From a virus (Duplodnaviria; Caudoviricetes), in the IMG/VR virus record IMGVR_UViG_3300010359_000066, positions 1 through 27,270 of that record: 27,270 bases of DNA, one strand, 5' to 3'. Under the pieces are notes generated by a model. That model was not told the DNA's origin and did not search any database. It saw nothing but the letters and a program-made list of their open reading frames with translations. The translations under genes and the position numbers were made by a program. Shown here piece by piece: positions 1 to 26,163 of this stretch. Position 1 is the first letter of the stretch. Each line of letters begins with the position of its first letter.

Positions 1-984
1 CAGGGCCAGGCGGCGTACATGACCGCCTACCCCGCGTTCAAGAAGACCACCCCACCCGGGGTGCTGCCGGGGCTACCGGCCATGCCGTACGGCACCGACG
101 GCAGAGAGCAGAACGCGAAGGCCTCCACGATCGAGCCAGGCAAGTTGTTTCCGTTCGACGTCAATCCGATCGACCAGCCCCGTTCGGGCGCCGACGCCGA
201 CAAGCTGATCGGGCAGATCCGGGAGATGCTCGAGTGGGCGCTGCCGAGCGTGGTCCAGGGCATGGTCGGCCAGGACCAGTCGGGGTACGCGCTGAACCAG
301 GCGGCGTATCTGGCGCGGCTGGGCTGGGATCCGATCGTCTCGAACGCCGAGGTCGCCCTGGGCGATCGGACCGGCTTCGAATCCTGGCTGATCGAGTCGC
401 GGCTCGGCGAGAAGGTCTACGCCTGGGGTGAGATCGAGGCCAAACGCGGGAAGAAGATGATCGGCGGCCAGACCAAGGCGACCTGGCTCGGCATCGGCCC
501 CGAGGATCTCAAGGGGGTACATCGCTACGAGGCCAAGCTCTCACCGTCCACCCCGTCCAACGAGATCATCGAAACCAGGGCCATCGGCGAGAAGATGCAG
601 TTGAAGCTGATCAGCTACGAGGACGCCGTCGAACGGGCGGGTTCGAACCCGGACGAGGTCGAGAAGTCGTGGTTGCTGCACGACCTGAAGAACTCCCAGG
701 AGATCCAGGGCGAACTCAAGAACGCGATCCTCCAGAAGGTGGCGACGATCCGCTCGCAGGCCGCGCAGGCGGCCGGGGTGCCACCTGAGGTGCTGAATCC
801 GGGTGCCACGGGCGTACCCGGTGGGACTCCGGGTGCTCCCCCGACACCCGGTCCAGGCGGGATGCCCGGCAACCCCGTGCCGTCTCCAGGGCAGGGGCTG
901 CCTATGGGTCCGCCAGGCGCGGCGCCCGGTACACCCGTCGTACCGGGGCCGCCGCCAGGCGCCATGCCGATGCCAGGAGGCTAG
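1..984 (+). CDS. Portal protein, C-terminal part (5' truncated by window)
   Basis: Frame open from base 1. Helical region with SGYALNQ...IVSNAE and a crown-like segment (LISYEDAVERAGSNPDEV) followed by a disordered Pro/Gly tail, typical of podovirus-type portals. Lies upstream of the head genes. Confidence 0.65.
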   Translation, partial: QGQAAYMTAYPAFKKTTPPGVLPGLPAMPYGTDGREQNAKASTIEPGKLFPFDVNPIDQPRSGADADKLIGQIREMLEWALPSVVQGMVGQDQSGYALNQAAYLARLGWDPIVSNAEVALGDRTGFESWLIESRLGEKVYAWGEIEAKRGKKMIGGQTKATWLGIGPEDLKGVHRYEAKLSPSTPSNEIIETRAIGEKMQLKLISYEDAVERAGSNPDEVEKSWLLHDLKNSQEIQGELKNAILQKVATIRSQAAQAAGVPPEVLNPGATGVPGGTPGAPPTPGPGGMPGNPVPSPGQGLPMGPPGAAPGTPVVPGPPPGAMPMPGG

Positions 985-2070
985 ATGCCGGGACCAGCCA
1001 ACATGATGGACGAGGTCGCGACAGACCTCGCCGCGTGGATCGACAAGACCGCCAGCGAGGTGGCGCTGGCGTTCGCGCCCGGCCGCGCCCCGTTCTCGGC
1101 GAACATCACCGAGGACCAGAAGCTTCAGTACTACCGCAGCCAGCTTTTCAACCCCGACGGCTCGCCCAACGTCCAGGGCCGCACGGCGCAGCTTCAGCGC
1201 CTGGGCGTTGAGGGATTCGGGCTGGTCTACAAGGCGATCATCAAGCGTTGGCCCGAGTTGAAGATCCCTGCGCCGCCTTCGATCGAAGTTCCGAGCGAAT
1301 GGCCTCGACCAGCGCCTGGAGGTCCGCCACCTGGCCCCCCATCTCCAGCAGGAGCGCCTCCAGGGCCACCACCCGGCCCTCCAGTCGGTCCGCCACCTCC
1401 GGCAGGCCCCCCAGGGCCGCCTGGTTCACGTCCGGGTCCACCACTACTTCCACCCAACACTCCTCCTATGCCACCGGTACGGGCGATGGCAACGGGTGGC
1501 GTCGTCACCGAGCCAACGCTGGCCCTGATCGGCGAGGCTGGTCCCGAGGCGGTCGTGCCACTACGCGACTACCAACCGACACCCTATCAGCCGCCTCAGC
1601 CCACGGTGGAGCAGTCATTGCGAAATCTTGGCACCGGCTTCGCGCCGGGGCAGCAGCCACCCGAGCAAGGCGAGATCCAGGCGTACATCGACCAGGCCGC
1701 CAGGGCGCGTGGCATCGACCCCGCCACAGCAATGTCGGTGGCGTACTTCGAGGGTGGTCGCGACCCGGCCAACCCCAACCAAGCCGCGTTCACCGACCCG
1801 AACGTGCGCGGCAGCTTCAACACTGGCTCGTCGTGGTGGCCGTTCCAGCTTCACTACGGCGGCCCAGGCTACGAGCAGTACGGTACCGCCGCTGGCCTGG
1901 GCAACGAGTTCACGCGCCAGACGGGCTATCAGCCGGGCGACCCTGCGGCGTGGAAGGCGTCGGTGGACTTCGCCCTGGACAATGCGCTCAAGGGTGGCTG
2001 GAGCCAGTGGTATGGCTCTCGTCCCGCAGGCGTAAGCAACTGGCAGGGTTTGCCACCGAGGAGTGCCTGA
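985..2070 (+). CDS. Probable virion/ejection protein: N-terminal domain, Pro-rich linker, ATGGVV..GEAGPEAVVPL motif, C-terminal lysozyme-like (transglycosylase) domain
   Basis: GGAGG RBS just before ATG 985. C-terminus IDQAARARGIDPATAMSVAYFEGG...PFQL...GWSQWY resembles the lysozyme/SLT fold with a catalytic Glu. Confidence 0.7.
   Translation: MPGPANMMDEVATDLAAWIDKTASEVALAFAPGRAPFSANITEDQKLQYYRSQLFNPDGSPNVQGRTAQLQRLGVEGFGLVYKAIIKRWPELKIPAPPSIEVPSEWPRPAPGGPPPGPPSPAGAPPGPPPGPPVGPPPPAGPPGPPGSRPGPPLLPPNTPPMPPVRAMATGGVVTEPTLALIGEAGPEAVVPLRDYQPTPYQPPQPTVEQSLRNLGTGFAPGQQPPEQGEIQAYIDQAARARGIDPATAMSVAYFEGGRDPANPNQAAFTDPNVRGSFNTGSSWWPFQLHYGGPGYEQYGTAAGLGNEFTRQTGYQPGDPAAWKASVDFALDNALKGGWSQWYGSRPAGVSNWQGLPPRSA
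1241..1453 (-). CDS. Nested antisense gene: 70-aa coiled-coil protein
   Basis: AGGAGGAG RBS (complement of 1460-1467) 6 nt before GTG. Ten consecutive heptad core positions are hydrophobic (L,V,L,L,M,V,L,V,I,L). Contains RVVALE. Confidence 0.6.
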   Translation of the reverse strand: MEVVVDPDVNQAALGGLPEVADRLEGRVVALEALLLEMGGQVADLQALVEAIRSELRSKAAQGSSTRANA

Positions 2071-2071
2071 G

Positions 2072-3568
2072 ATGACGACGTACGACTACGCGAACTTCAC
2101 TGCTTCGGGCGACGCACGGGCGTGGGCCAAGCAGATGGCCGACCAGGCCTTCCAGCAGGCGCAGATGCAGGGCATGAGTGGCAATCTGGCCCTGGACCAG
2201 GCGAAGTTCGCCTGGCAGAAGGTCATGGACACCGCCGGGCTGACCGGCAAGTTCGAAGACAACTGGACCTTCCCGGCCAACCAGTGGTTCACCTCCCAGT
2301 TCGGGGAGTGGATGCCCAACGGTCCCACTGCTGGCCAGCAGACGATGGCTCGCGAGCAGCAGACGTACGAGCAGCAGCAGGGCTACGGCTCGCTCTACGG
2401 GCAGTACTACGCGCCTGGCACGGCACCCTCCCAGGGCCAGCAGACCCTCTCGGCCCAGGATCTGGCGATGCGGAATGCCCTCGGCGCCGCTGGGGTGACC
2501 GGCTACTACGTGGCGCCGGGGAGCGCGGCGGGTGCCCAGGGTGTGCAGACACTCCAGGGCCAGAACCAGCAGTTCCAGCAGGGCCTCCAGACGCAGCAGG
2601 AGCAACGCGCCGCGCAAGCGCAGGGGCAGTCGCAGGCGATGCAGTACCTTCAGCTACTGTCGAACCTGCGCGGACCCGCCGACTGGGCCAAGTACCAGCA
2701 GGTGCTCGGCTCCACGCCCGGTGGCATGCGCGATCTGGTTGGCGCCGCCATGGGCCAGTACGTGCCTGGCGGTGGCGCCACCACAGGCATGGCGCCGCAG
2801 GCCGTCAGCCTTCAGAGCATGATGGGCGACGTCAGTGGCAACCCGTACTACGGCCAGGGCGGTGGTCAGTTGCTCACGCCCAACGTGTACGGCCAGAACT
2901 CGCAGGGCATGTACACCCAGCAGTACCAGCCGAGCCAGCAGACAATCGCGGGGTACCAGCAGGCTGCCACTCAGGCCTACCAGCCCCAGCAGCAGTGGGC
3001 GCAGCCGGGCGGCCAGATCTCTCAGGAAGGCATGTGGGGCGGCCCGAAGAGTGGTGCCGCCTGGGACCAGTACAGCGCTGCCCAGCAGCAACGCCAGGCG
3101 CAGATGCCGCAGATGCAGACGCAGACCAGCGGCGGCCTGGGCATGGGCAGCTTCGGTGCCGCGCAACCGGCGCAGATGTTCAGCGGCCAGCAGCCGTCGC
3201 AGTACCAGGGCGGTCAGCCGGCCCAGTATCAGAATGAGCAGTGGGCCAGCGGCGCGTATCGCGGCGGCACTGGCGGCCTCGGGATGGGCAACATGGGCGG
3301 CCAGACCTGGGGCAGCGGCATCGGCGTCGGGCAGCAGCAGCCCACGCCGCAGCAGCAGCAGCAGGGCCTTGGCAACGGCACCAACCTGCCAGCGCCGAAC
3401 CAGATCTCGGCCCAGGGCTGGAAGAACATGCAGCCGTCGCAGCAGCAGATGCTGCTCGGCATGTACGAGGCCCAGGGCTGGGACAAGGGCGACGTGCAGT
3501 CGCTCTACAACCAGAGCCTGCCGAAGTACGCCACCAACTCGCCGACCGCTGGCACCTGGCGAATGTAA
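2072..3568 (+). CDS. Gln/Gly-rich low-complexity protein, probable DNA ejection/pilot protein
   Basis: GAGGAG at 2058-2063 favours ATG 2072 over GTG 2063. High GC3, Q/G/A/M/Y-rich, very few charged residues, located between other ejection-type genes. Confidence 0.6.
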   Translation: MTTYDYANFTASGDARAWAKQMADQAFQQAQMQGMSGNLALDQAKFAWQKVMDTAGLTGKFEDNWTFPANQWFTSQFGEWMPNGPTAGQQTMAREQQTYEQQQGYGSLYGQYYAPGTAPSQGQQTLSAQDLAMRNALGAAGVTGYYVAPGSAAGAQGVQTLQGQNQQFQQGLQTQQEQRAAQAQGQSQAMQYLQLLSNLRGPADWAKYQQVLGSTPGGMRDLVGAAMGQYVPGGGATTGMAPQAVSLQSMMGDVSGNPYYGQGGGQLLTPNVYGQNSQGMYTQQYQPSQQTIAGYQQAATQAYQPQQQWAQPGGQISQEGMWGGPKSGAAWDQYSAAQQQRQAQMPQMQTQTSGGLGMGSFGAAQPAQMFSGQQPSQYQGGQPAQYQNEQWASGAYRGGTGGLGMGNMGGQTWGSGIGVGQQQPTPQQQQQGLGNGTNLPAPNQISAQGWKNMQPSQQQMLLGMYEAQGWDKGDVQSLYNQSLPKYATNSPTAGTWRM

Positions 3569-3571
3569 GCC

Positions 3572-6500
3572 ATGACGATGCTGCCGGACATCGACCAGAC
3601 GTCGTGGGACGAGTACGAGAAGCAAGAGCTTCAGCGGCAGCTTGAGCAGAAGCAGCAGGGCTTCACCCTGCAAAGCATGATCGGTGAGAAGGTCGCCGGT
3701 CTCCAGAGCCTGGTGGGCGGCGGCGCTGGTGCGGAACAACAGGCCGTCGCTCCACCACCTCCCCCCGCGCCCGAGCCGGCTCCCGAACCGTCCGTTTCCC
3801 AGGCGCCTCCCGAGCCGGCTCCGGCACCTCCCCCGCCGCCACCTCCGCCTGCACCTCCCGCGCCCGTGAACAACCAGCAGGACTGGATGGCCCAGGCGAT
3901 AAGTGCCGTGGGCCGCGCCGGGGGCGACGTGCAGCAGTTCGCGTCCAACCTGGGCAGCGGCACCGGCGACATGGTTGCTGGTGCGATCAGCGCTGCCGGC
4001 AAGGCCGGCGCGGACGTGCAGCAATTCGCAGCGAATTTACCTACCCTACCAGCGCCACCTCCGCCGCCACCGACCCCAAGGGTGCCCACGCCGTCACCAC
4101 CTCCTGTTGCACTCCAATCTGACGGCGCGGCGGGTGGTGGCAGCCTTCAGGACTACGCTCGCCAGGCCGCGCAGCGGGTCGGCATTGACCCCGACATCTT
4201 CACCCGTCAAATCCAGCAGGAGTCGGGTTTCAACCCGAACGCCAAGTCGCCGGCCGGGGCCACGGGCATCGCCCAGTTCATGCCGGGCACCGCCCAGGGC
4301 ATGGGCATCGACCCGTCCGATCCGTACGCCGCCCTGGACGCGGCGGCGAAGCTGGATCGCCAGAATCTCGAGAAGTACGGCGACTACCGCTCGGCCCTCG
4401 CGGCGTACAACGCCGGCGGCGGCAACGTGGACAAGTACGGCGGGGTGCCGCCGTTCGAAGAGACCCAGCGCTACGTCCAGAACATCCTGGGCGGCGCAGG
4501 AGGCGCCATTGGCAGCGCCGCCTCCGCCGCTGGTGGGGCGATCGGCGGGGCGGTTTCGGGCGCCGTCTCCGCCGGCCGCCAGGCCGTCACGGACATCTCC
4601 CAGTTCGGCGATAAACAGTTGAACAACGACGAGGCGTACGCCGCGTGTGGACCCGCCGCAGCGGTGCGCTTCGCTTCCATGTACGGCCGCAACCCGAGCC
4701 TGCGCGAGGCGGTGGACCTGGCCAAGCAGGTGGGCTGGACGGCCGCCAACGGCATGGCCGGTCTCGCCTCCGAGAAGAACTTGATGGACAAGCTCGGCGT
4801 CGCCACCAAGATGGTCAGCGGCGGCAACTGGGATCTGTTCGCCAAGGAGGCGCAGAGCGGCAACCCCGTCACCATCTCGACGCCTGGCCACTACTTCTTT
4901 GCCGACGGCTACGACCCGCAGAGCGGCGCGTTCCACGTCGGCCGCAGCGGCTCGGACCTGCGCCAGGGCAGCGAGTGGATGACCCCCGCACAGATGACTG
5001 CGGTGATGGGGCCAGTCCAGGGCGGCCTGCTCGCCGACAACCCGCAGGTGCCGCAGCCGTCGATCGCCGATCAGGACACCAACCCGCTCGGCTACCTGGG
5101 CCGCCTCAAGGACTCCATCACCAGTGGCATCGGCGGTGCCGCGTCCGGCGTCGGCAGCTTCATCGGCAGCAATGTGGGCCAGACCGCCAGCGACCTGGGC
5201 CTGGGAGCGCGGGGCATCGCCGACGCCCTGGGCGGCATGGCCAAGACGCAGGGCGACCAGTTCGCCTCCGACGCCGACGCCGTGCGGCGGCTCAACGACA
5301 CGATCATGGCCACCCCGCCCGGCCAGCCGCTGGAGACAGCTCTCCGGGGCATCGAGGGGCGGCTCCGCGACCTGAACCTGCCGACCACGCCGACGGACCT
5401 GTGGACCCGCGCAGAGGAACCCACGGGCGCCGTCGCCGAGGGGCCGGGCCTGGCAGCGCTCGGACGCGGGTTCAGCGCCCTGGGCACGGGCGTGAAGGCA
5501 CTCACCGACGTCACCCAGGAGATCAGCCCTGGCACCGCCCTGGGCCGCATGCAGGCGGGTGAGGAAGCGCTGCTCTGGTCCGACCCCTCGGCTCGAGCCG
5601 TGATGCTCGCCAACGGGATGTCGCCGGATATGTCGATGGGGGAGTCGGCGCGAGCGCAGATCAGCATGTCGCCGACCGATCGCGCCATCCTCGGTCAGGC
5701 CAGGGCCGACATCCGCGCCCAGGGGCCAGAGGCGGTGTCGTCGGCGGCGTTCGGCGAAGGCACCCGCCGCGAGGAGTACGAGAACCAGTACAACACGCTG
5801 CTCGGCCTGGCGTCGATGGGCATCGCCCCCGAAGGCCTGGCCAGCGGCGCCGGCCGCTTCGCTGCCAGCCTGGCGGTGGACCCTGGCAGCGCCCCCTTCG
5901 CCGCCCTGGGCGCGATCCCCGATGCGCTGCGAATAGTTCGTGGTGCTGCGCCCCAAGCGGGTGAGGCGGCGCGTCTGGTGGAGCGCGGGGCGAACTACCT
6001 GCCAGGGACGCCGGAGTTCAACTTCGAGCAGGCCGCCCAGGCCTCGCGCGATGCCGCCGCCGACGGGCTGACGCATCTCGATCTCCACAACATGCCCGGC
6101 TCGCCCTTCACCCTGACCGGCGGCAAGGGCACACTCAAGACGAACCCCGGCGGCGCCCCGACGCAGGATGCGCTGCGCGAGCTTCTCGACGCCAACCTGC
6201 ACAACAAGGACTTCTACGTGGACCAGGCCGACGACGCCGAGCGGCTGGTCGGCGACAACAAGGCGGAGTGGTTCAGCCTGAACGCGATCAACTCCCCGCT
6301 GACGAAGGTGGAGCGTCAACTGGAGGAGTCGATCAACGCGATGGGTCTGGTGCGCGAGGAGGCGGCGAAGGCTCGTGCCGCTGGGCAGGACGAGCAGCAG
6401 GCGATCCTCAACGCGGTCCGCGACAAGGACCGCCTCAGCCTTGCCAGCACGACTGCGCCGAACAAACGCGCCGATATCGAAGAGTCGTATCTGACGGGAC

Positions 6501-9500
6501 GCTCAGAGGTGACGGGGGCGCCGAAGACGTCCTCGTTCGCAGGCAACTACACCTCCGCTGGTGAGCGGGTGTTCGATCCGCGCATCACCAGCGACGTACA
6601 TAACTGGCGCCTGTTCAACGTTTCTGATGACACCAAACGGGTGGTTCGCAAAGGTAAGGAAATCATCGAACGGCCCTGGGAAAAGAACGCCGCCAATAAC
6701 GACACCGCGTACCGGTTTGTGGAGGCCTCACTCAATGACCTCGCGCGTGAGAAGGGCCTGGAGGGGCATCAGGTCCAGTCCGCCCTATGGAGCGGCATGC
6801 GCGGTCTGCAAAGCGACCCGGAGGCGTACGCCTTATGGAAGGCCGGCAAGTTCTCAGACGCCGTGCGGATGGGCCGCGAGCGGAGCCTGTTCAACCTGCC
6901 AGGCGCGGGTGAGATCGAGGTCGCCATGCAGGCGCCAGGCGTCCAGAAAGCGCTCGCGCGGTACGGCCACCTGCTGAAAGACCCGCCGCCGCTCCAGGGC
7001 TTCGGCATGACGCGGGAGTACCCCGGCTTCGGCGCTGGCAAGCCCAAGGCCCGACCGGCGCGTCCGTCAGGTGCCGCGTTCCGCACCGCCGAACGCGCTG
7101 TTGCGGAGGCCGGTGCGCCGGTCGTGCAGGGCTTGAGTGGTGACGTGGTCCGCGCCCTGGGCACCACACCCGAAGGCATCATCCCGTGGCTCGGCGCCGC
7201 GCACCGCGTGGAGGAAGTGGCGCCCGGTCAGTTCGCGATCCACCTCCCCTCCGGCAACAGTCAGACGGCGCGGTACGTCGCCTCGCTGATTGGCGACGCC
7301 ACCGGTGCTGACTCGGTGCCGATCCACATTCCGAATTTCCGCGCTCCGGACATCGGCGGTTTCAGCGTCGTGGCGGACCCGGAGGCCATCGCCGCCTTTC
7401 GCACGGAGCTTGACGCACAGGGCGTCCCGTACCTCCGTGGGACTACAGGAGCCTCCGTACAGATCCCCCTGAAAGCGGGGTTGGACGGCACCGAAGAGGG
7501 TATAGTTCAGGCGGCGCAGCGAGCCGGTTTGCCGCTGGAGTCGCTGAATCACTACGCGGGAGCAACCGTCAATGCCGTATCCGGAGAGTACACGTCAACG
7601 CTTGGCGAGCTTGGGCCTACCTTTGGACCCGCTACCGCCGAGCGATCCGATCTACAGCAACGGGCTATTAGTCGGCTTCGGGAACTCGGCGCCGGCCGAC
7701 CAGGCAGCTACGCCGGAGACACCAGCCGCATCGCCGCTCCCGACCTATCAGGCGGGGCAGTATCAGGTGCCGACCTCGGAGGGAACCTCGCCTCCGTCAT
7801 CGCTCGAGGAGCAGGCGAAGGCCTGAGATCCGACCTCGCCCGAGGTGCCATCACTGGTGGTATCTCGGGCGGGTATGCCGCCGCCCAACAGCCTGGCGCC
7901 AGCCCTGAGGACATCGCCCTCGGCGCCCTGACCGGCGCCTCCGCTGGCGCCGTACGCGGCGGCCTTACCAGCGCCATCCCGAGCCTGGACACCGCCCGTC
8001 TTGGGCACCTGGCCAACATCATCGGTCGGGACGGTCGGCAGCTTACGAACGAGGACGGCAAGCTCCTCGGCAAGCCCACGCCGCTGGACGAAAAGCTGTG
8101 GATCCCCGGTCGGCCCGAGCCTGGCGCCGACCTGGCCAAGCTGGTTAGCCCGGCCGGCAACCTGCTGAGCACCGTCGGTACCGGCACCACCGAGGCTGGC
8201 ACCGAGGCGACGGGTATCGCTCGGACCCTGCTCGGCGCGGAGCCGTGGACGTACACGCCGCCCGAGGACGTCACCAAGTCGCTGCCCAACCTGATGCACA
8301 TGGCCAACGGCATGCCCGACGTGCAGGCTTCCCTGGCACGGACGAGCGAGGAGTCGAAGGCCCTGATGCAGAAGTACCGCCAGGGCACCATCACCCACGA
8401 CGACCTGATCCAGATGGCCGCCGAGAGTGTCGGCATGACCGCTGACGACTTCCGCAAGACCGAGGTCGGCAAGGCCTTCCGTCCCGAGGAACTGCTCGCC
8501 CTGCGGGGTGCGGTGGCGAAGTCCACCGACGACTGGCTGCGCACCGCTCGCGAGATCCAACAGCAGGGCGGCGTCGAGAAGCTGAGTCCCGAGCAGAAGG
8601 TCAACGCGATGCGCCAGATGCTGGACGCGGCGCAGCTTCAGGCGGTGGGTGTCGGCGGCGCCAGCACCGCTGCGCGAACACTGAACCAGCAGCGCATCAA
8701 CGTCACCCGCATGCTGATGGAGCAGTTGACCAAGGGCACCGAACTGAAGTCCGCCACTGCGGCGCTCACCGAGGCTCGGGCACGTGAAGCCTGGGCCAGC
8801 GCCAAGTTGGGCATCAAGCCGCGCCAGGGCCTCGAGGCGCGGGTCGGTCCGTCGCCGGCGGGGGATGCGATCCGTGGCCAGGCCAAGACCGCCGCCGAGG
8901 CGTACCAGGCGCGGCTGGACGCCGCCAGGGCTGACCTTCGCGCCCAGGGCCGCTACGACGAGAAGAACTGGAACGCTCGCCTGGCGGAACTGGAAGACAA
9001 GGCGAACATCTCTCGAGACGCCGGGATGAAGCAGGCGGTCCAGGCCGAACGCGCCAGGGTGAACGGCAGCTACGACAACTACATCGACGCCGTGAAGGCC
9101 GAGCTTCAGGCGCAGGACAACTTCGACCAGAAGACCTGGGACGCAACGCTGGCCAAGCTGGACAAGCAACACCAGAGCATGCAGGAACGCGGGTCGATGT
9201 GGAACCGCCGCGACGTCACCACGCCCGAGGGGCAGACGGCCTGGTTGCAGGGCATGGCGAACAACGCTCGCGAGGACGCCAAGGCGGAGAACAATCGCGC
9301 CATCGCCGCCTGGAACCGCCAGCTACGCGACGCCGAGACGCAGCGGAACATCGCCAACCGCATCCTCGGCCGTCTTGGTGGCGAGAAGGTCACCGACGAG
9401 ATGCTCAAGGGCATGATCGAGGCGATGGGCAGCGGCGACACGATGCAGATGGCCAAGTACCTCCAGGGTCTCAAGAAGGTCGGCTGGTGGGACCGCATCG

Positions 9501-11284
9501 GCACCCTGCGCTACGCCAGCATGCTCTCCGGCCTGGCGACGCACGAGGCGCAGCTTCTCGGCAACACGGTGATGGGTGGCCTCGCCATGGGTGCCCACCC
9601 GCTCGCCGTCGGTGCCGACATCGCCAGGTACGGCGTCGGCCGCGCCCTGGGCCAGGACGTGGAGCGCCAGCGCTACATGTCCGAACTGCCGGCGATGATG
9701 CGCGGCATGAAGGGCGGCTGGCACTCGGGCCGCGAGGACGCGCTGTCGATCCTCAAGACCGGCATCAACCCCGCCGAGGCGTCGCGGAACTGGGAGGCCC
9801 TGGGCAGCCCTGGCTTCGCGATCGAGCAGACTGCCCTGGGCAAGGCGCTCGGAGATACGGGCAGCAAGGCTGTGAACGCTGCCGTTGAGGGTCCGCTCCG
9901 CGCCCTGGGCGCAGGCGATGCCCTGATCCGAGGCACGATGCGCGGCGCGTTCGCCTACCAGCTTGCCGAGCGCCAGGCGATCCGCGAAGGCTTCGCCGCA
10001 GGCTCCAGGCGCAACGATCGCGTAGAGGAGATCGTGCGCAACCTGCACGAGTTCCCCGAGCTTGTCCAGCAGGCCGACAACATGGCCAAGCGGGTGGTGC
10101 TGCAAGAGGGACGTGGCGAGATCTCGCCGCTGGCGCAGATCCGCAGCAAAGGCATCGCTGGCAACGCCTTCTCTCTGATCGCGCCGTTTGTGCGGACCCC
10201 GTACAACATCGCCGCCCAGGGCGCCGGCTTGACGCCACTCGGCTATGCGGGTGCGCTGACTGCCCTGGCGAAGGGCGACACGGGTGAGTTCGCCGATCGC
10301 GCCGCCAGGGCCACACTCGGCACAGGCATCCTGGGCGGCGCGTACGCCCTGGCCAAGAACGACCACCTGACGGGGGCGATGCCGACCGATCCGAGCGAGC
10401 GCTCCACACTGCCGCCCGGCTGGCAGCCGTACGCCCTCAAGCTGAACCTGCCCGGCCAGGATCAGCCAACGTACGTCAAGTACTCGAACCTGGCTGGTCC
10501 GATCGGGGTGCCGCTGGCGCTGGCGTCGGCGATGGTGGACGCCGAGAGGGACAACCGCTACGTGGAGCCAGGCAACGTCGTGCAGCGCATGTCGAACTAC
10601 ACCGGGCGGATGGCCGGCAGCTTCGGCAAGTACATGCTCGATCAGACGATGATGCAGGGCCTGGGCGCGGTGTATGACGCCGTCAACGAACCCGAGCGGA
10701 AGGGCGAGAACTTCCTCGAGTCGATGGCTGGTCAGTTCGCCCCGTACGCGGCGATGACCCGCTCACTCGATCGCGCCCTGGGCACCGGTCCTCGCGACCC
10801 GCACGGCATCCTTGACGCCCTGGAAGCGGCGTACCCAGGCCTGAGCGGCCTGGTGCAGCCCCGTCGCGACGCCCTCGGCCGCGAGGTGCGCGAGACGCAG
10901 ACCGGCCTGCCAGCGATCATCTCGCCGGCGCGGTACGGCATCGAGCAGGACGACCCGACCCTCCGCGCCCTGGCGGCGGCGGACCAGGGCATCGGCGCCG
11001 CGCCGACGTCGATGCGCGGTTTCGACCTGACGCCCGAGGAGCGGCAACGGGTCTTCCCCGCCCAGGCCGGCTACTACATCCAGCAGGCGGTGCAGGACAT
11101 GGCCTCGCGCCCTGACTACCAGGCCAGGGACCGCGATACGCAGCAGACAATCATGGCACGGGTGATTGAGCAGGCTCGTGCCCAGGCGTTCGCCGACCTG
11201 TACAACTCGTGGTCACCCGAGGAACGCCTGCGGCGCCAGGAGATGAACCGTCAACGCACCGCCGCCGAGGCGCGGCCCTACTAG
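3572..11284 (+). CDS. 2570-aa polyvalent internal virion/ejection protein: SLT lytic transglycosylase (~4145-4490), C39-like Cys peptidase (~4590-5040), HhH-GPD glycosylase-like domain (~6200-6830), coiled coil, conserved C-terminal region
   Basis: SLT motifs QQESGFNP, GIAQFMP, AAYNAG, ETQRYV; peptidase motifs SQF...ACGPAA...GHYF; APKTSSF..ITSDVH..QSALW; C-terminal PFVRTPYNI / GWQPY / RRDALG motifs as seen in large podovirus internal proteins. Confidence 0.8.
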   Translation: MTMLPDIDQTSWDEYEKQELQRQLEQKQQGFTLQSMIGEKVAGLQSLVGGGAGAEQQAVAPPPPPAPEPAPEPSVSQAPPEPAPAPPPPPPPPAPPAPVNNQQDWMAQAISAVGRAGGDVQQFASNLGSGTGDMVAGAISAAGKAGADVQQFAANLPTLPAPPPPPPTPRVPTPSPPPVALQSDGAAGGGSLQDYARQAAQRVGIDPDIFTRQIQQESGFNPNAKSPAGATGIAQFMPGTAQGMGIDPSDPYAALDAAAKLDRQNLEKYGDYRSALAAYNAGGGNVDKYGGVPPFEETQRYVQNILGGAGGAIGSAASAAGGAIGGAVSGAVSAGRQAVTDISQFGDKQLNNDEAYAACGPAAAVRFASMYGRNPSLREAVDLAKQVGWTAANGMAGLASEKNLMDKLGVATKMVSGGNWDLFAKEAQSGNPVTISTPGHYFFADGYDPQSGAFHVGRSGSDLRQGSEWMTPAQMTAVMGPVQGGLLADNPQVPQPSIADQDTNPLGYLGRLKDSITSGIGGAASGVGSFIGSNVGQTASDLGLGARGIADALGGMAKTQGDQFASDADAVRRLNDTIMATPPGQPLETALRGIEGRLRDLNLPTTPTDLWTRAEEPTGAVAEGPGLAALGRGFSALGTGVKALTDVTQEISPGTALGRMQAGEEALLWSDPSARAVMLANGMSPDMSMGESARAQISMSPTDRAILGQARADIRAQGPEAVSSAAFGEGTRREEYENQYNTLLGLASMGIAPEGLASGAGRFAASLAVDPGSAPFAALGAIPDALRIVRGAAPQAGEAARLVERGANYLPGTPEFNFEQAAQASRDAAADGLTHLDLHNMPGSPFTLTGGKGTLKTNPGGAPTQDALRELLDANLHNKDFYVDQADDAERLVGDNKAEWFSLNAINSPLTKVERQLEESINAMGLVREEAAKARAAGQDEQQAILNAVRDKDRLSLASTTAPNKRADIEESYLTGRSEVTGAPKTSSFAGNYTSAGERVFDPRITSDVHNWRLFNVSDDTKRVVRKGKEIIERPWEKNAANNDTAYRFVEASLNDLAREKGLEGHQVQSALWSGMRGLQSDPEAYALWKAGKFSDAVRMGRERSLFNLPGAGEIEVAMQAPGVQKALARYGHLLKDPPPLQGFGMTREYPGFGAGKPKARPARPSGAAFRTAERAVAEAGAPVVQGLSGDVVRALGTTPEGIIPWLGAAHRVEEVAPGQFAIHLPSGNSQTARYVASLIGDATGADSVPIHIPNFRAPDIGGFSVVADPEAIAAFRTELDAQGVPYLRGTTGASVQIPLKAGLDGTEEGIVQAAQRAGLPLESLNHYAGATVNAVSGEYTSTLGELGPTFGPATAERSDLQQRAISRLRELGAGRPGSYAGDTSRIAAPDLSGGAVSGADLGGNLASVIARGAGEGLRSDLARGAITGGISGGYAAAQQPGASPEDIALGALTGASAGAVRGGLTSAIPSLDTARLGHLANIIGRDGRQLTNEDGKLLGKPTPLDEKLWIPGRPEPGADLAKLVSPAGNLLSTVGTGTTEAGTEATGIARTLLGAEPWTYTPPEDVTKSLPNLMHMANGMPDVQASLARTSEESKALMQKYRQGTITHDDLIQMAAESVGMTADDFRKTEVGKAFRPEELLALRGAVAKSTDDWLRTAREIQQQGGVEKLSPEQKVNAMRQMLDAAQLQAVGVGGASTAARTLNQQRINVTRMLMEQLTKGTELKSATAALTEARAREAWASAKLGIKPRQGLEARVGPSPAGDAIRGQAKTAAEAYQARLDAARADLRAQGRYDEKNWNARLAELEDKANISRDAGMKQAVQAERARVNGSYDNYIDAVKAELQAQDNFDQKTWDATLAKLDKQHQSMQERGSMWNRRDVTTPEGQTAWLQGMANNAREDAKAENNRAIAAWNRQLRDAETQRNIANRILGRLGGEKVTDEMLKGMIEAMGSGDTMQMAKYLQGLKKVGWWDRIGTLRYASMLSGLATHEAQLLGNTVMGGLAMGAHPLAVGADIARYGVGRALGQDVERQRYMSELPAMMRGMKGGWHSGREDALSILKTGINPAEASRNWEALGSPGFAIEQTALGKALGDTGSKAVNAAVEGPLRALGAGDALIRGTMRGAFAYQLAERQAIREGFAAGSRRNDRVEEIVRNLHEFPELVQQADNMAKRVVLQEGRGEISPLAQIRSKGIAGNAFSLIAPFVRTPYNIAAQGAGLTPLGYAGALTALAKGDTGEFADRAARATLGTGILGGAYALAKNDHLTGAMPTDPSERSTLPPGWQPYALKLNLPGQDQPTYVKYSNLAGPIGVPLALASAMVDAERDNRYVEPGNVVQRMSNYTGRMAGSFGKYMLDQTMMQGLGAVYDAVNEPERKGENFLESMAGQFAPYAAMTRSLDRALGTGPRDPHGILDALEAAYPGLSGLVQPRRDALGREVRETQTGLPAIISPARYGIEQDDPTLRALAAADQGIGAAPTSMRGFDLTPEERQRVFPAQAGYYIQQAVQDMASRPDYQARDRDTQQTIMARVIEQARAQAFADLYNSWSPEERLRRQEMNRQRTAAEARPY
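3893..4040 (+). repeat. Internal protein duplication AISAVGRAGGDVQQFASNL / AISAAGKAGADVQQFAANL
   Basis: Two near-identical 19-aa units in the N-terminus of the giant protein. Confidence 0.8.
4023..4037. promoter_or_regulatory. Perfect palindrome AATTCGC-A-GCGAATT, operator-like, inside CDS
   Basis: 7-bp perfect inverted repeat built from rare codons (CAA TTC GCA GCG AAT TTA), whereas the sister protein repeat uses common codons. Confidence 0.4.
7572..7826 (+). CDS. Overprinted +1-frame gene (84 aa) inside the giant protein gene
   Basis: GGGAG RBS at 7558-7562, 9 nt before ATG. Host-frame A/T-ending codons rise to about 35/85 here versus 5/60 at 8342-8521 (hand counts). TATAGT -10-like hexamer at 7501-7506. 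Confidence 0.6.
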   Translation: MPYPESTRQRLASLGLPLDPLPPSDPIYSNGLLVGFGNSAPADQAATPETPAASPLPTYQAGQYQVPTSEGTSPPSSLEEQAKA

Positions 11285-11293
11285 GAGGATCCC

Positions 11294-13054
11294 ATGGGAC
11301 AACCAACGCCTCCGCTCCCGACCGGTGGCGGCGCCGCTCGAGCGACGCAGGTGCCGAACCTGCCGAACATGCAGATGGATCCGACCACCCAGGCCAACAT
11401 CCTGGCGCAGATCCAGCGCTCCGGGTGGAACGCGTCGCAGCCCACGCCTGAGATCCAGTTCACCCAGGATCCGGGCGGCAACCCGACGCCCGTCGTCAAG
11501 GGCTGGTCGATGGTGATCACCGACCCGAAGACGGGCACCAACGAGAAGGTCGGTCTGAGCTACTCGCCTGGTGGGCGGATGCCGTGGGGCATCACCGACG
11601 CTCCGAAGTCACTGCCGACGGATCCCGCCGTCGCCGGCAGGACCACGGTCAAGACCAACCAGGGTGTGTACTCGTACGACCCGAAGACGCAGACCACCAC
11701 GTACCTGATGCCGTCCGACATCCCGAACGCCGACGAGGAGATCTCGAAGGCGGTGGAGCGGCAGGACCGCGAGGCGCTGCGCAACGAGAAGGAAGCCAAC
11801 TACCAGGCGGGGCGCGGCTACCAGACCGACGCCGACTACCACAAGATGGCGGACGACGCCGCCAGGACCGGTATCAGTGCAGGCCAACTGGCAGAGAACA
11901 TCCGCCAGTTCAACGCCGACCAGGCCGAGAAGATCCGCCAGTTCGACATCAAGCAGGCCGCTCAGGACAAGAAAGACGCCCAGGACATCCTCCAGTCCAA
12001 GGCGACCGTCGGCCAGATCAACGCGCAGACCGGCCAGATCACCACCAGCACCAGCAAGACGCAGCAGGAGATCGAGCAGTCCGCCGAACTGTTCCCCCTG
12101 ACGAAGGAGCAGACGCAGGCCACCACGGCTGGCATCAAGGCGCGAACTGCTGCCGAGGAGCAGGCGCAGAAGATCGCCGCCGCGCCCACGCTCCAGGGTG
12201 GCCTGACCACTCCATACCTGACCACGGTCAACCCGCTCACTGGCCAGGTTGACCAGAGCCAGATGAACAAGGCCTACCTGCCCAAGACCCAGGGCGAGAT
12301 CGCCGCCAGGGTCGGGCAGATCCAGTCCCTGGCGCAGGCCAAAGGGCAGGAGATCCAGGCCAAGGTCGGCCAGAACGGCTACACCGCCGACCAGGCGCTG
12401 GCGGACTACAACAAGTGGTGGGACCAGAACGTCGCGCCGCAGACCCAGGCACTCCAGTCCGCCCAGGAGGAGAACGCCTTTACTCGAGCCAAGGACGCGG
12501 CGCAGGCGCGGCAACAGGGTTACCAGACCGCCCTGGGCGCAGGCACCCAGGCGATCAATGCCTTCAACGCCGAGGCAGCCAACCGGGTCGGGCCGAACTA
12601 CGAGAACGTCATCAATCAGATCCGCTCGGGCAAGGACATCAAGAACATCGACATGACCGGCGCCTTCACCTACAAGGGGCCGTCCGTGCAGGACACCGCC
12701 AACCAGGCGGTGCAGAACTCACTCAAGACGATGGGCGCCGACGCCCTGCCGCAGTTCCAGGGCGTGGACATTCCAGGCCTGCTGAACCGCACCCAGTACA
12801 TGCCAGGCGCGATGCCGCCGCAGGGGCCGCCAGGGCAGCCGATGCCCTCCCAGGGACCGCCACCAGGGCCGCCGCAGCCGATGCCCTCCCAGGGACCACC
12901 ACCACCACCCATGGTCTCGAGCGGCACCCAGGGGCCTGGCAATCCCTGGGCGAATGGCACACCACCGCCAGGCACGACCTGGCAGAACGCCAACCTGCCG
13001 AACCCCTTCGACTATTTGAAATACCAACTGACTGACCGTTACGGCGGCGCCTGA
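11294..13054 (+). CDS. Q/A/T-rich coiled-coil protein with Pro-rich C-terminus, probable ejection protein
   Basis: Strong AGGAGG RBS, long helical Q/A-rich middle, high GC3, position in the ejection cluster. Confidence 0.6.
   Translation: MGQPTPPLPTGGGAARATQVPNLPNMQMDPTTQANILAQIQRSGWNASQPTPEIQFTQDPGGNPTPVVKGWSMVITDPKTGTNEKVGLSYSPGGRMPWGITDAPKSLPTDPAVAGRTTVKTNQGVYSYDPKTQTTTYLMPSDIPNADEEISKAVERQDREALRNEKEANYQAGRGYQTDADYHKMADDAARTGISAGQLAENIRQFNADQAEKIRQFDIKQAAQDKKDAQDILQSKATVGQINAQTGQITTSTSKTQQEIEQSAELFPLTKEQTQATTAGIKARTAAEEQAQKIAAAPTLQGGLTTPYLTTVNPLTGQVDQSQMNKAYLPKTQGEIAARVGQIQSLAQAKGQEIQAKVGQNGYTADQALADYNKWWDQNVAPQTQALQSAQEENAFTRAKDAAQARQQGYQTALGAGTQAINAFNAEAANRVGPNYENVINQIRSGKDIKNIDMTGAFTYKGPSVQDTANQAVQNSLKTMGADALPQFQGVDIPGLLNRTQYMPGAMPPQGPPGQPMPSQGPPPGPPQPMPSQGPPPPPMVSSGTQGPGNPWANGTPPPGTTWQNANLPNPFDYLKYQLTDRYGGA
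12835..12897 (+). repeat. 24-nt direct repeat GCAGCCGATGCCCTCCCAGGGACC x2 (period 39), encoding QPMPSQGP
   Basis: Exact copies at 12835-12858 and 12874-12897. Confidence 0.9.
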
Positions 13055-25313: not shown

Positions 25314-25596
25314 CCAGCGGCACCAGCTTGATCGCCCTGGTCGGCTGCGGCATGCCAGGCGGCGCCACCCAGGTCTCCTCCAGCGGCACTACGCACAGGA
25401 ACATCGCGTCGCCACTGTGCTCGCGATGCCAGGCGATGTACGCCTCGGCGGCGGCACGGTTGGTGTAGGCGGTGATCACGTCAAACCACCCGTCCTTGAT
25501 GTCCGCGCACACCACGTAGACCCACCCCTTGGGCAGCGGTGTGTCGAAGATCTCTTTCAGCAGGGCTTCAGTTGCTCGGGTCGGAGTCTGTGTCAC
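25306..25596 (-). CDS. Hypothetical protein (96 aa)
   Basis: GGAGG RBS before GTG; VYVV....VITAYTNRAAAEAY pattern of small phage proteins. Confidence 0.7.
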   Translation of the reverse strand: MTQTPTRATEALLKEIFDTPLPKGWVYVVCADIKDGWFDVITAYTNRAAAEAYIAWHREHSGDAMFLCVVPLEETWVAPPGMPQPTRAIKLVPLDE

Positions 25597-25789
25597 GGAG
25601 CCTCCAGGCAGTCAGGTTGGGCGACTCGTGCTCACCCTCAGGCAAGCAGTCGCAGTCTTCGAGCAGGCACTCATCCGGGTCGCACATATGGCTGAGGCCG
25701 GCCACCTGCATGCAGCCGCAGACGGGGCAGTGATACATGCCGAGCGGCGCCCCCTTCAGGGCGACTGGATCCTCGGGGCACTTGACCAT
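25568..25789 (-). CDS. Cys-rich putative metal-binding protein (73 aa)
   Basis: TGATG coupling at 25789; YHCPVCGC...H.C...C...CDC. Confidence 0.65.
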   Translation of the reverse strand: MVKCPEDPVALKGAPLGMYHCPVCGCMQVAGLSHMCDPDECLLEDCDCLPEGEHESPNLTAWRLRDTDSDPSN

Positions 25790-26163
25790 CAGCGCTCCAC
25801 CAGATTGAGAAACAAGTCCCACCGCTGGCCGTTCAGTTCGACCCAGGTCTCCAGCTTGAGCTTTGGATCGATGTGCTTGAGCGGCAGGCGGACCCCGGTC
25901 CGGGCGCGTTCCATCTCCTTGCGGGTGCTGAAGCTGGCGACGGTGACCAGCCCGTTCCGATAGTCCGCGACCATCTTCTTAGCCAGGCTGATCCAGATGC
26001 CGCCCGGCTTCTTACGCCCGGGGTTACGCGCCTGGTTGCGCGGCACGGACTTGGTGGTGAACGTGATGTCGTCGTCGGTCACTGTTTCCGGGGGTACCTC
26101 GCTCGTTGGCCTGGGCCGGTTGTGCCGCCCACGGATGTATGGGCGGCGCGGCTGGTCGCTCAC
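25789..26163 (-). CDS. Basic hypothetical protein (124 aa), possibly DNA-binding
   Basis: GTGA coupling; K/R-rich; alpha/beta C-terminal domain. Confidence 0.65.
   Translation of the reverse strand: MSDQPRRPYIRGRHNRPRPTSEVPPETVTDDDITFTTKSVPRNQARNPGRKKPGGIWISLAKKMVADYRNGLVTVASFSTRKEMERARTGVRLPLKHIDPKLKLETWVELNGQRWDLFLNLVER

Follow-up and report, generated by a model that had tools for sequence, protein, structure and literature searches.

Genomic context of the antisense reading frame

The window (the whole stretch of DNA analysed here, 27,270 nucleotides) is the record of a virus of the Caudoviricetes that is 62% complete and has a GC content of 60-74%. Its plus strand carries a virion module consisting of the genes for a probable portal, a likely virion protein (designated here as the host gene, as it harbours the antisense reading frame), a Gln/Gly-rich protein, an SLT protein, the major capsid protein and collagen-like fibres (Table 1). 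The gene at the left end itself gave no family match in PHROGs or Pfam searches. The Pro/Gly tail of this probable portal (769-984, plus strand; found also in relatives) has a low-complexity look and strong protein conservation (747 silent versus 36 replacement changes), and it was used as the control for the linker statistics.

The host protein consists of a conserved three-helix N-domain, a Pro/Gly linker, a tape-measure-like motif and a variable C-domain. For the N-domain, neither a family match nor a match in cultured phages nor a usable Atlas match was obtained, and a comparison of its model (pLDDT 69) with BFVD and PDB revealed no similar fold at E≤0.001. The C-terminal domain of the window protein (1486-2070, plus strand) had no Pfam match. 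Note that the domains behind the MAxGG motif are swappable, with at least three kinds or none at all in this place (L007, L009, L010, L012, L020).

The phage family is temperate, since all 16 near-complete relatives possess an integrase of one type or the other; a temperate lifestyle is one of the features by which morons are recognised. Tyrosine integrases are encoded in 11 of 20 related records and serine recombinases in 7, the two never occurring together, and even close kin (G001-G020) switch between the two types. No integrase was found among the ORFs scanned in the 62% complete window. One of the relatives (G001) encodes in addition a C5 cytosine methylase and a GP88-family protein (L165:9584-10876 and 11739-12548, both on the minus strand). 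The searches for the bacterial host resulted in two weak matches in prokaryote genomes, and the capsid protein is 41% identical to that of Arthrobacter phages. A distant relative of the host gene (L161, 46% identity) is located on a 7.6-kb contig in a Devosia MAG, which is possibly mis-binned and was not taken as an indication of the host.

Table 1. Features of the window around the antisense reading frame
Feature	Position	Strand	Basis
Upstream gene (3' part), likely portal	1-984	+	Two genes after terminase in relative G001
Host gene, 361 aa, likely virion (ejection-type) protein	985-2070	+	Gene order (for the role)
Pro/Gly linker, 75 codons, holds the antisense gene	1261-1485	+	Codon and third-position composition
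MAxGG...TLALIGEAGPEAVVPL motif	1477-1569	+	Match to tape-measure-protein profiles (phrog_10093, E 1.1e-5)
Large internal-virion-type protein, 2570 aa, with lytic transglycosylase (SLT) domain	3572-11284	+	Domain match
Antisense ORF (70 aa) from GTG to TGA, wholly within 985-2070	1241-1453	-	ORF list
Coiled-coil core, residues 21-56, five heptads	1286-1393	-	Heptad analysis; AlphaFold2 helix
RVVALE, R-h-x-x-h-E trimerisation motif, residues 27-32, g-a-b-c-d-e register	1358-1375	-	Definition as in the accessible text of PMC3203266
Shine-Dalgarno sequence AGGAGGAG, 6 nt before GTG	1460-1467	-	AGGAGG core 8 nt before GTG
Polar C-terminal tail of the antisense product	1241-1285	-	Sequence determined by the overlapping plus-strand protein
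Speculative extended -10 candidate (TG-A-TAGGGT), ~120 nt before the start	1581-1589	-	Pattern scan

A heptad pattern written in synonymous third bases

A preliminary description of this DNA, made from the letters alone, had proposed that the linker hides an antisense gene for a coiled coil, with a ribosome-binding site 6 nt before its GTG, unbroken 4-3 heptads and hydrophobic positions set mainly by the synonymous third bases of the plus strand. The ribosome-binding site, the heptads and their dependence on third bases are found in the window. The Shine-Dalgarno sequence lies just inside an in-frame TAG (1468-1466, minus strand), and a gene caller also predicts the ORF, from the GTG at 1444 (P0005). 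The ten heptad positions are all hydrophobic (L24, V28, L31, L35, M38, V42, L45, V49, I52, L56), and each of these residues is determined by an A at a synonymous plus-strand third position.

In the antisense frame, the second codon position of the minus strand coincides with the wobble position of the plus strand. For this reason, G/C-ending minus-strand codons for Leu, Glu, Ala, Arg, Val and Asp correspond to Pro, Gly or Ala codons of the plus strand, so that an antisense helix costs a disordered linker little. The third positions of the linker are indeed unusual: A or T is present in 44 of its 72 codons, compared to 23±4 expected from the codon usage of the Pro-rich control (p=1e-4), and A/T-ending codons make up 59% in the linker versus 10% in the N-domain of the host gene. 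Of 1365 segments of 50 codons scanned, the linker is the most A/T-ending one, the next two being in frames judged to be mis-started. Other Pro-rich stretches are also A/T-enriched at third bases (~32%).

The periodicity was quantified with a heptad score, a simple measure of our own. The antisense frame scores 9.75, the highest value over all six frames of the window, which neither 2000 synonymous permutations nor 2000 draws based on control codon usage attained (p≤0.0005 each); under the strictest null model, in which the junction composition is fixed, p=0.004. The pattern is thus rare in codon shuffles, the check that had been suggested for it. The 17 portal tails used as controls (the mis-called L040, L041 and L048 being omitted) score at most 4.0, and three of them have p<0.05 under the first null only. 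With the junction composition fixed, p stays at ≤0.01 for just 5 of the first 10 coiled-coil linkers, and part of the periodicity is therefore due to the spacing of Gly on the plus strand. Furthermore, presumably non-coding frames in the window and in three other genomes score 8.0-8.75, so that a single sequence is suggestive and the case is carried by the evidence from the family. A DNA tandem repeat could be ruled out as the origin of the periodicity, as none is present within the linker.

Codon choice was compared between 10 coiled-coil linkers (the first ones, selected by eye) and 20 portal tails including the mis-called L040, L041 and L048. For Pro before G, CCA (corresponding to antisense Leu) is used at 70 of 110 junctions in the coiled-coil linkers versus 48 of 252 in the portal tails, and codons resulting in antisense Pro amount to 8 of 187 versus 106 of 496.

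Distribution of the antisense coiled coil among relatives

Three scans provided a sample of loci (L001-L160) with at least 67 distinct host proteins, that of the window included; duplicates, loci with a profile score below 60 and two loci lacking the linker motif (L048, L120) were dropped before counting. A metagenome scan with the low-complexity linker inside the query gave no matches, whereas an alignment query did. Among the matches listed, 19 host proteins have a short linker (<32 codons) and 48 a long one; 34 of the long linkers score ≥7 in this antisense frame, the other 14 stay at ≤4.5, and none falls in between. Interruption of the frame in close relatives would have spoken against the gene, according to the preliminary description, and this outcome did not arise: the coiled coil is present in 34 of the 67 host proteins among the matches listed, although it is absent or degenerate in the 14 other long-linker and the 19 short-linker ones. 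The linkers of carriers differ from those of many non-carriers by 40-60 codons in length.

The 34 carriers among the matches listed represent 27 lineages (<85% identity), with the core consensus RLxLAVxRLEDLAARLEVL. The products, as deduced from inferred starts, range in length from 59 to 104 aa, with a median of 68, and acidic proteins make up 24 of 26. Automatic gene callers predicted 17 of them, including that of the window, which is not evidence of expression. Note that the window product is divergent: against a profile built without it, it is the best of the window frames with a non-significant E of 0.34, and its membership therefore rests on position, frame, length, placement in the tree and its own statistics. 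One relative (L019, minus strand, about 3287-3388) possesses in the same antisense slot and frame a hydrophobic, membrane-like peptide of 34 residues (19-residue hydropathy 3.25, p=2e-4 versus control codon usage).

A profile search among 1.84 billion representatives resulted in 54 matches. Inspection of 14 new ones showed 8 short sequences carrying the tail that the host gene imposes, 5 longer simple repeats and 1 unrelated weak match. No stand-alone copy was detected in 20 whole records; the sensitivity of this search is limited, since it missed one divergent carrier.

Selection on the two frames

Substitutions were counted in DNA-only pairwise alignments along a minimum spanning tree, and isolated ones were classified according to their silence on each strand. 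In the core, delimited using the alignment of the minus-strand protein, 22 pairs showed 56 substitutions silent only on the minus strand, 34 silent only on the plus strand and 16 silent on neither, the corresponding shares of sites being 0.30, 0.33 and 0.37. The same three classes numbered 26, 351 and 59 in the N-domain, 5, 747 and 31 in the portal tail, and 3, 71 and 14 in linkers that lack the coiled coil. Omega was ~0.24 for the minus frame (p=3e-8) and ~0.43 for the plus frame (p=0.004), and both frames are therefore constrained. As the plus-strand wobble position of the core changes more slowly than the plus-strand second position (34 versus 56 changes at near-equal numbers of sites, p=0.008), plus-frame selection alone cannot explain the core. 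These comparisons of sequences indicate that purifying selection acts on the predicted antisense protein in the core.

The minus-strand signal is confined to this part. In the first 15 linker codons, where no minus-frame selection was seen, 5 minus-silent changes contrast with 53 plus-silent ones, and the whole linker has 64 versus 106. A single Arg is kept in 26 of the 27 lineages by means of CGG, CGC or CGA, while the plus-strand residue varies between Ala, Gly, Pro and Val.

The shuffles, the occurrence in 34 of 48 long-linker relatives and the frame-blind substitution test support the central proposal of a real antisense coiled-coil gene under selection on the minus strand, and we regard it as very probable that the antisense stretch is a protein-coding gene under selection.

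Predicted product

The product is predicted, with high probability, to be an amphipathic helix forming a coiled coil. AlphaFold2 predicts a single helix (residues 7-69, mean pLDDT 88), as it does for any such sequence. In the family, three hydrophobic stripes run through each heptad (90%, 69% and 63%), flanked by Arg and Glu, and this pattern fits trimers or higher oligomers.

The window product had been described as likely trimeric because of its RVVALE, which does match R-h-x-x-h-E in the proper register. The motif is present in 11 of the 27 lineages (window and 10 relatives) and absent from 16; in the 10 relatives its heptad register, under profile alignment, differs from that of the window. 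According to the accessible text of PMC3203266, the R-[VILM]-x-x-[VIL]-E motif of coronin-type trimers is also found in some dimers and antiparallel trimers; the window product and the 10 relatives share this motif with coronin-type trimers, and no homology is implied. The motif assignment stood; for the trimer itself, we would put the chances somewhat below even.

The window product had no PHROGs or Pfam match at E≤0.01. Weak matches to CAP_N-CM (products of 6 of 16 relatives; P0013 at the cut-off with 19 bits) were regarded as generic coiled-coil likeness. Furthermore, 1 of 22 alignment members matched an unnamed PHROG, the sole match among solved structures was a designed hexamer peptide (E 0.028), and the look-alikes proposed by the Atlas language model were all below its 0.9 mark, clusters of capsid scaffolding proteins reaching 0.82.

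Start signals and a putative promoter

At the end of the linker, most carriers encode the plus-strand motif P-[MI]-[MLVI], which corresponds on the minus strand to the hexamer CATCAT, TAGCAT, TATCAT, TACCAT, CAGAAT, CACAAT or CACTAT. In 22 of the 27 lineages, such a -10-like hexamer is located 7-8 nt before an in-frame GTG or ATG, compared to 0 of 159 control starts; note that this rule was framed after viewing the data and that the lineages share ancestry and are not independent. Of the other five lineages, four (the window among them) possess a Shine-Dalgarno sequence instead, and L058 fits neither rule. Hexamer variants other than that for Met-Met use rare plus-strand codons (CTA, ATA, GTA, ATT) in 9 of 9 cases, against a background of 3 of 63. 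An upstream TG extension accompanies all 19 C-starting hexamers and none of the 5 T-starting ones.

The individual loci differ in the arrangement of these signals. In L020 and L053, the hexamer is untranslated on the minus strand, since there is an in-frame stop and no start codon upstream. In L010, the motif is gone and a different hexamer lies exactly 8 nt before ATG. L054, L069 and L088 have kept the hexamer and lost the adjacent GTG, and a Shine-Dalgarno sequence precedes a later start. The window has its Shine-Dalgarno sequence and no adjacent hexamer; this element is particular to the window copy, as most relatives carry the -10-like hexamer before the start. Hexamers of the TACCCT type (L001, L019, L042) can arise from a plus-strand Shine-Dalgarno sequence and stop codon.

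In high-GC bacteria, leaderless genes are marked by a TANNNT near the start (PMC3160421), and TGN extensions strengthen promoters of the TANNNT type (PMC3898074). Two observations speak against such a promoter here. With the 8-nt spacer, the first base of the hexamer is 14 nt from the start, slightly beyond the ~12 nt given in PMC3160421, and the spacing exceeds the typical one by 1-2 nt. Furthermore, TANNNT at 7-8 nt was found at 0 of 597 gene-like starts in four genomes of the phage family. In the window, a scan of 1454-1800 for extended -10 elements yielded two candidate sites (three pattern rows), and no -35/-10 pair was found for the antisense ORF. Altogether, we infer with some confidence that the antisense gene has a putative sigma-70-type extended -10 promoter of its own, combined with a (near-)leaderless start in the majority of relatives; the window copy would use a Shine-Dalgarno start.

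Origin of the antisense gene

A tree of 34 loci was calculated from a part of the upstream protein and the N-domain (quick method, midpoint root). All 22 carriers fall into one clade of 29 rows (SH-aLRT 90), and the host gene of the window is inside the carrier clade. Five deeper rows and seven rows within the carrier clade are without the coiled coil, the latter through deletion, decay or replacement. This topology fits one gain and repeated losses of the predicted gene. The tree based on the N-domain only was poorly resolved and forced at least 5 changes.

The antisense gene probably originated by overprinting, opposite the linker. It is wholly nested in an open plus frame that is itself under selection, and the antisense frame shows purifying selection. 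Furthermore, its distribution is narrower than that of the host gene (34 of 67), and the searches made revealed no stand-alone homologue.

Comparison with known systems

Two systems resemble the locus in the kind of protein encoded. In lambda Rz/Rz1, a coiled-coil protein shares DNA with a Pro-rich one; Rz1 is a lipoprotein encoded on the same strand, in the lysis cassette. Spanin pairs are recognised by a membrane anchor and a lipobox and by same-strand nesting in the lysis cassette. In contrast, the antisense gene is on the opposite strand in a virion module, and its 70-aa product has no cysteine, hence no lipobox cysteine, and no N-terminal membrane anchor. HBZ of HTLV-1 is a retroviral leucine zipper encoded antisense; it has a basic region, whereas the antisense coiled-coil products are mostly acidic.

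The nearest arrangement found is that of Tab in the Pseudomonas prophage JBD26, a defence gene on the minus strand of the late region with its own promoter, which is expressed in the prophage (PMC10884400). The antisense gene resembles it as a minus-strand gene within a late region, its own promoter being predicted here. Tab is located between the two terminase genes (small and large), and anti-Tab is its partner gene (PMC10884400), whereas the antisense gene is wholly nested in a coding sequence, no partner gene was seen, and it is known from sequence. Besides Tab, morons in general are close: they consist of additional inserted DNA that deviates in GC and brings its own promoter and terminator, e.g. 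HK97 gp15 (PMC3594210). Like gp15, the antisense gene is a patchy accessory unit in a virion operon of temperate phages, and a promoter of its own is predicted; unlike morons, it shares the DNA of the host gene, its GC (68%) is the same as that of the surroundings, and a simple scan of 700-2200 revealed no terminator. Therefore, it works at most like a moron, as two moron features (terminator; inserted DNA of deviant GC) are lacking. In the accessible texts on Tab and morons, neither overlaps a host gene.

Embedded antisense genes under purifying selection with evidence of translation have been reported as a pair in P. aeruginosa (PMC8850804) and as a trio in E. coli O157:H7 (PMC9927249). Going by the accessible parts of these reports, full embedding and purifying selection are shared with the present case; the differences are that the latter concerns a phage family, is known from sequence, and displays gain, losses and turnover of start signals across 27 lineages. 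The literature searched (largely open-access, main texts) contains no description of such an arrangement. Antisense frames account for 6.6% of annotated virus overlaps, and the median overlap in DNA viruses is ~16 nt (PMC8903798, accessible text); Ardern and colleagues consider antisense overlaps little studied even in viruses (PMC7457138, accessible text). The case described here is a full nesting of 210 nt with family-wide evidence of selection, controls from the same genomes and relatives without the gene, and thanks to these the birth by overprinting and the origin of promoter and start signals can be traced. Other Pro/Gly linkers with A/T-rich, conserved wobble positions may conceal helical antisense proteins as well and could be screened for.

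Possible role of the antisense gene

On balance, we slightly favour the view that the locus is an overprinted, moron-like accessory gene for a coiled coil, probably with its own promoter in the prophage state. Overprinting opposite the Pro/Gly linker of a probable virion gene would have created a new coding frame, the own promoter would drive its transcription in the prophage, and the resulting cytoplasmic coiled coil of 60-100 residues would act as a moron-like accessory protein. Expression in the lysogen is suggested by analogy, and the chances that the main role is there appear evenly balanced. As for the job itself, the likeliest candidate, proposed by analogy and tentatively, is a decoy helix interfering with a superinfecting relative or with a coiled-coil protein of the host. 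If the product protects lysogens, it would represent a defence gene invisible to context-based searches.

A more elaborate version of this moron-like reading is similarly speculative. The disordered virion linker would serve as a de novo expression slot, in which an antisense extended -10 element written in rare plus-strand codons drives a new-born defence or host-control protein, the hydrophobic pattern of the latter being laid down in wobble bases of the host gene. Such a unit would be a moron that arose through overprinting and not through insertion. The slot would turn over by relocation of the promoter, by the change from a leaderless to a Shine-Dalgarno start, and by rebuilding the coiled coil (window) or swapping it for a membrane peptide (L019).

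Alternatively, the antisense gene may be real and serve the lytic cycle, its product being either a minor component of the virion or a small coiled coil that acts as scaffold or chaperone for fibres or ejection proteins. Its location in the virion module and the weak capsid scaffolding look-alikes (0.82, below the 0.9 mark of the tool) speak for such a helper. However, the gene opposes the direction of the late operon, so that both strands would have to be transcribed at once; it is absent in 33 of the 67 relatives listed, including complete genomes without a copy elsewhere; and the slot of L019 contains the hydrophobic peptide. We therefore regard this role as unlikely.

Less likely still is that the locus mainly provides an antisense transcript, which would damp terminase-portal read-through into the ejection and transglycosylase genes, the protein being secondary. 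DNA conservation within the unit peaks in the hexamer region, hexamers of a similar kind are present in 7 of 32 relatives that lack the coiled coil, and the product varies by lineage (window, L069, L019). However, in none of these 7 does a GTG follow 8 nt downstream, and the core is under selection at the level of the minus-frame protein. Moreover, a conserved RNA structure could be ruled out on both strands (consensus energy ~0, z<-2 in 0 of 27).

A shadow frame, in which PPG-type repeats with A/T-ending Pro codons yield antisense Leu, Glu and Val without any selection, has become quite improbable. The genetic code does force this alphabet, and the third bases of the other Pro-rich stretches and the scores of the presumably non-coding frames (see above) are in line with it. 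However, the pattern is missing in the control Pro-rich tails and in the linkers without coiled coil, and the slow wobble position of the core speaks against it, so that the shadow frame is largely refuted for the family. The least probable alternative, a backward, in-frame insertion of an older free-standing coiled-coil gene into the host gene, would explain the 40-60 codon difference between linkers, but no stand-alone homologue was found among the 1.84 billion representatives (8 of the 9 inspected new short matches have a host-forced tail), and outgroups possess Pro-rich tails of up to 83 codons with no coiled coil.

Two further frames of the window were noted. One at 25529-25963 (plus strand), opposite small leftward genes, reaches a heptad score of 8.5 and is probably a shadow frame. 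Within the host gene, a short ORF at 1505-1615 (minus strand) is in the same antisense frame as the coiled-coil gene, and its ATG is located 6 nt after a TG-C-CAAGAT element at 1633.
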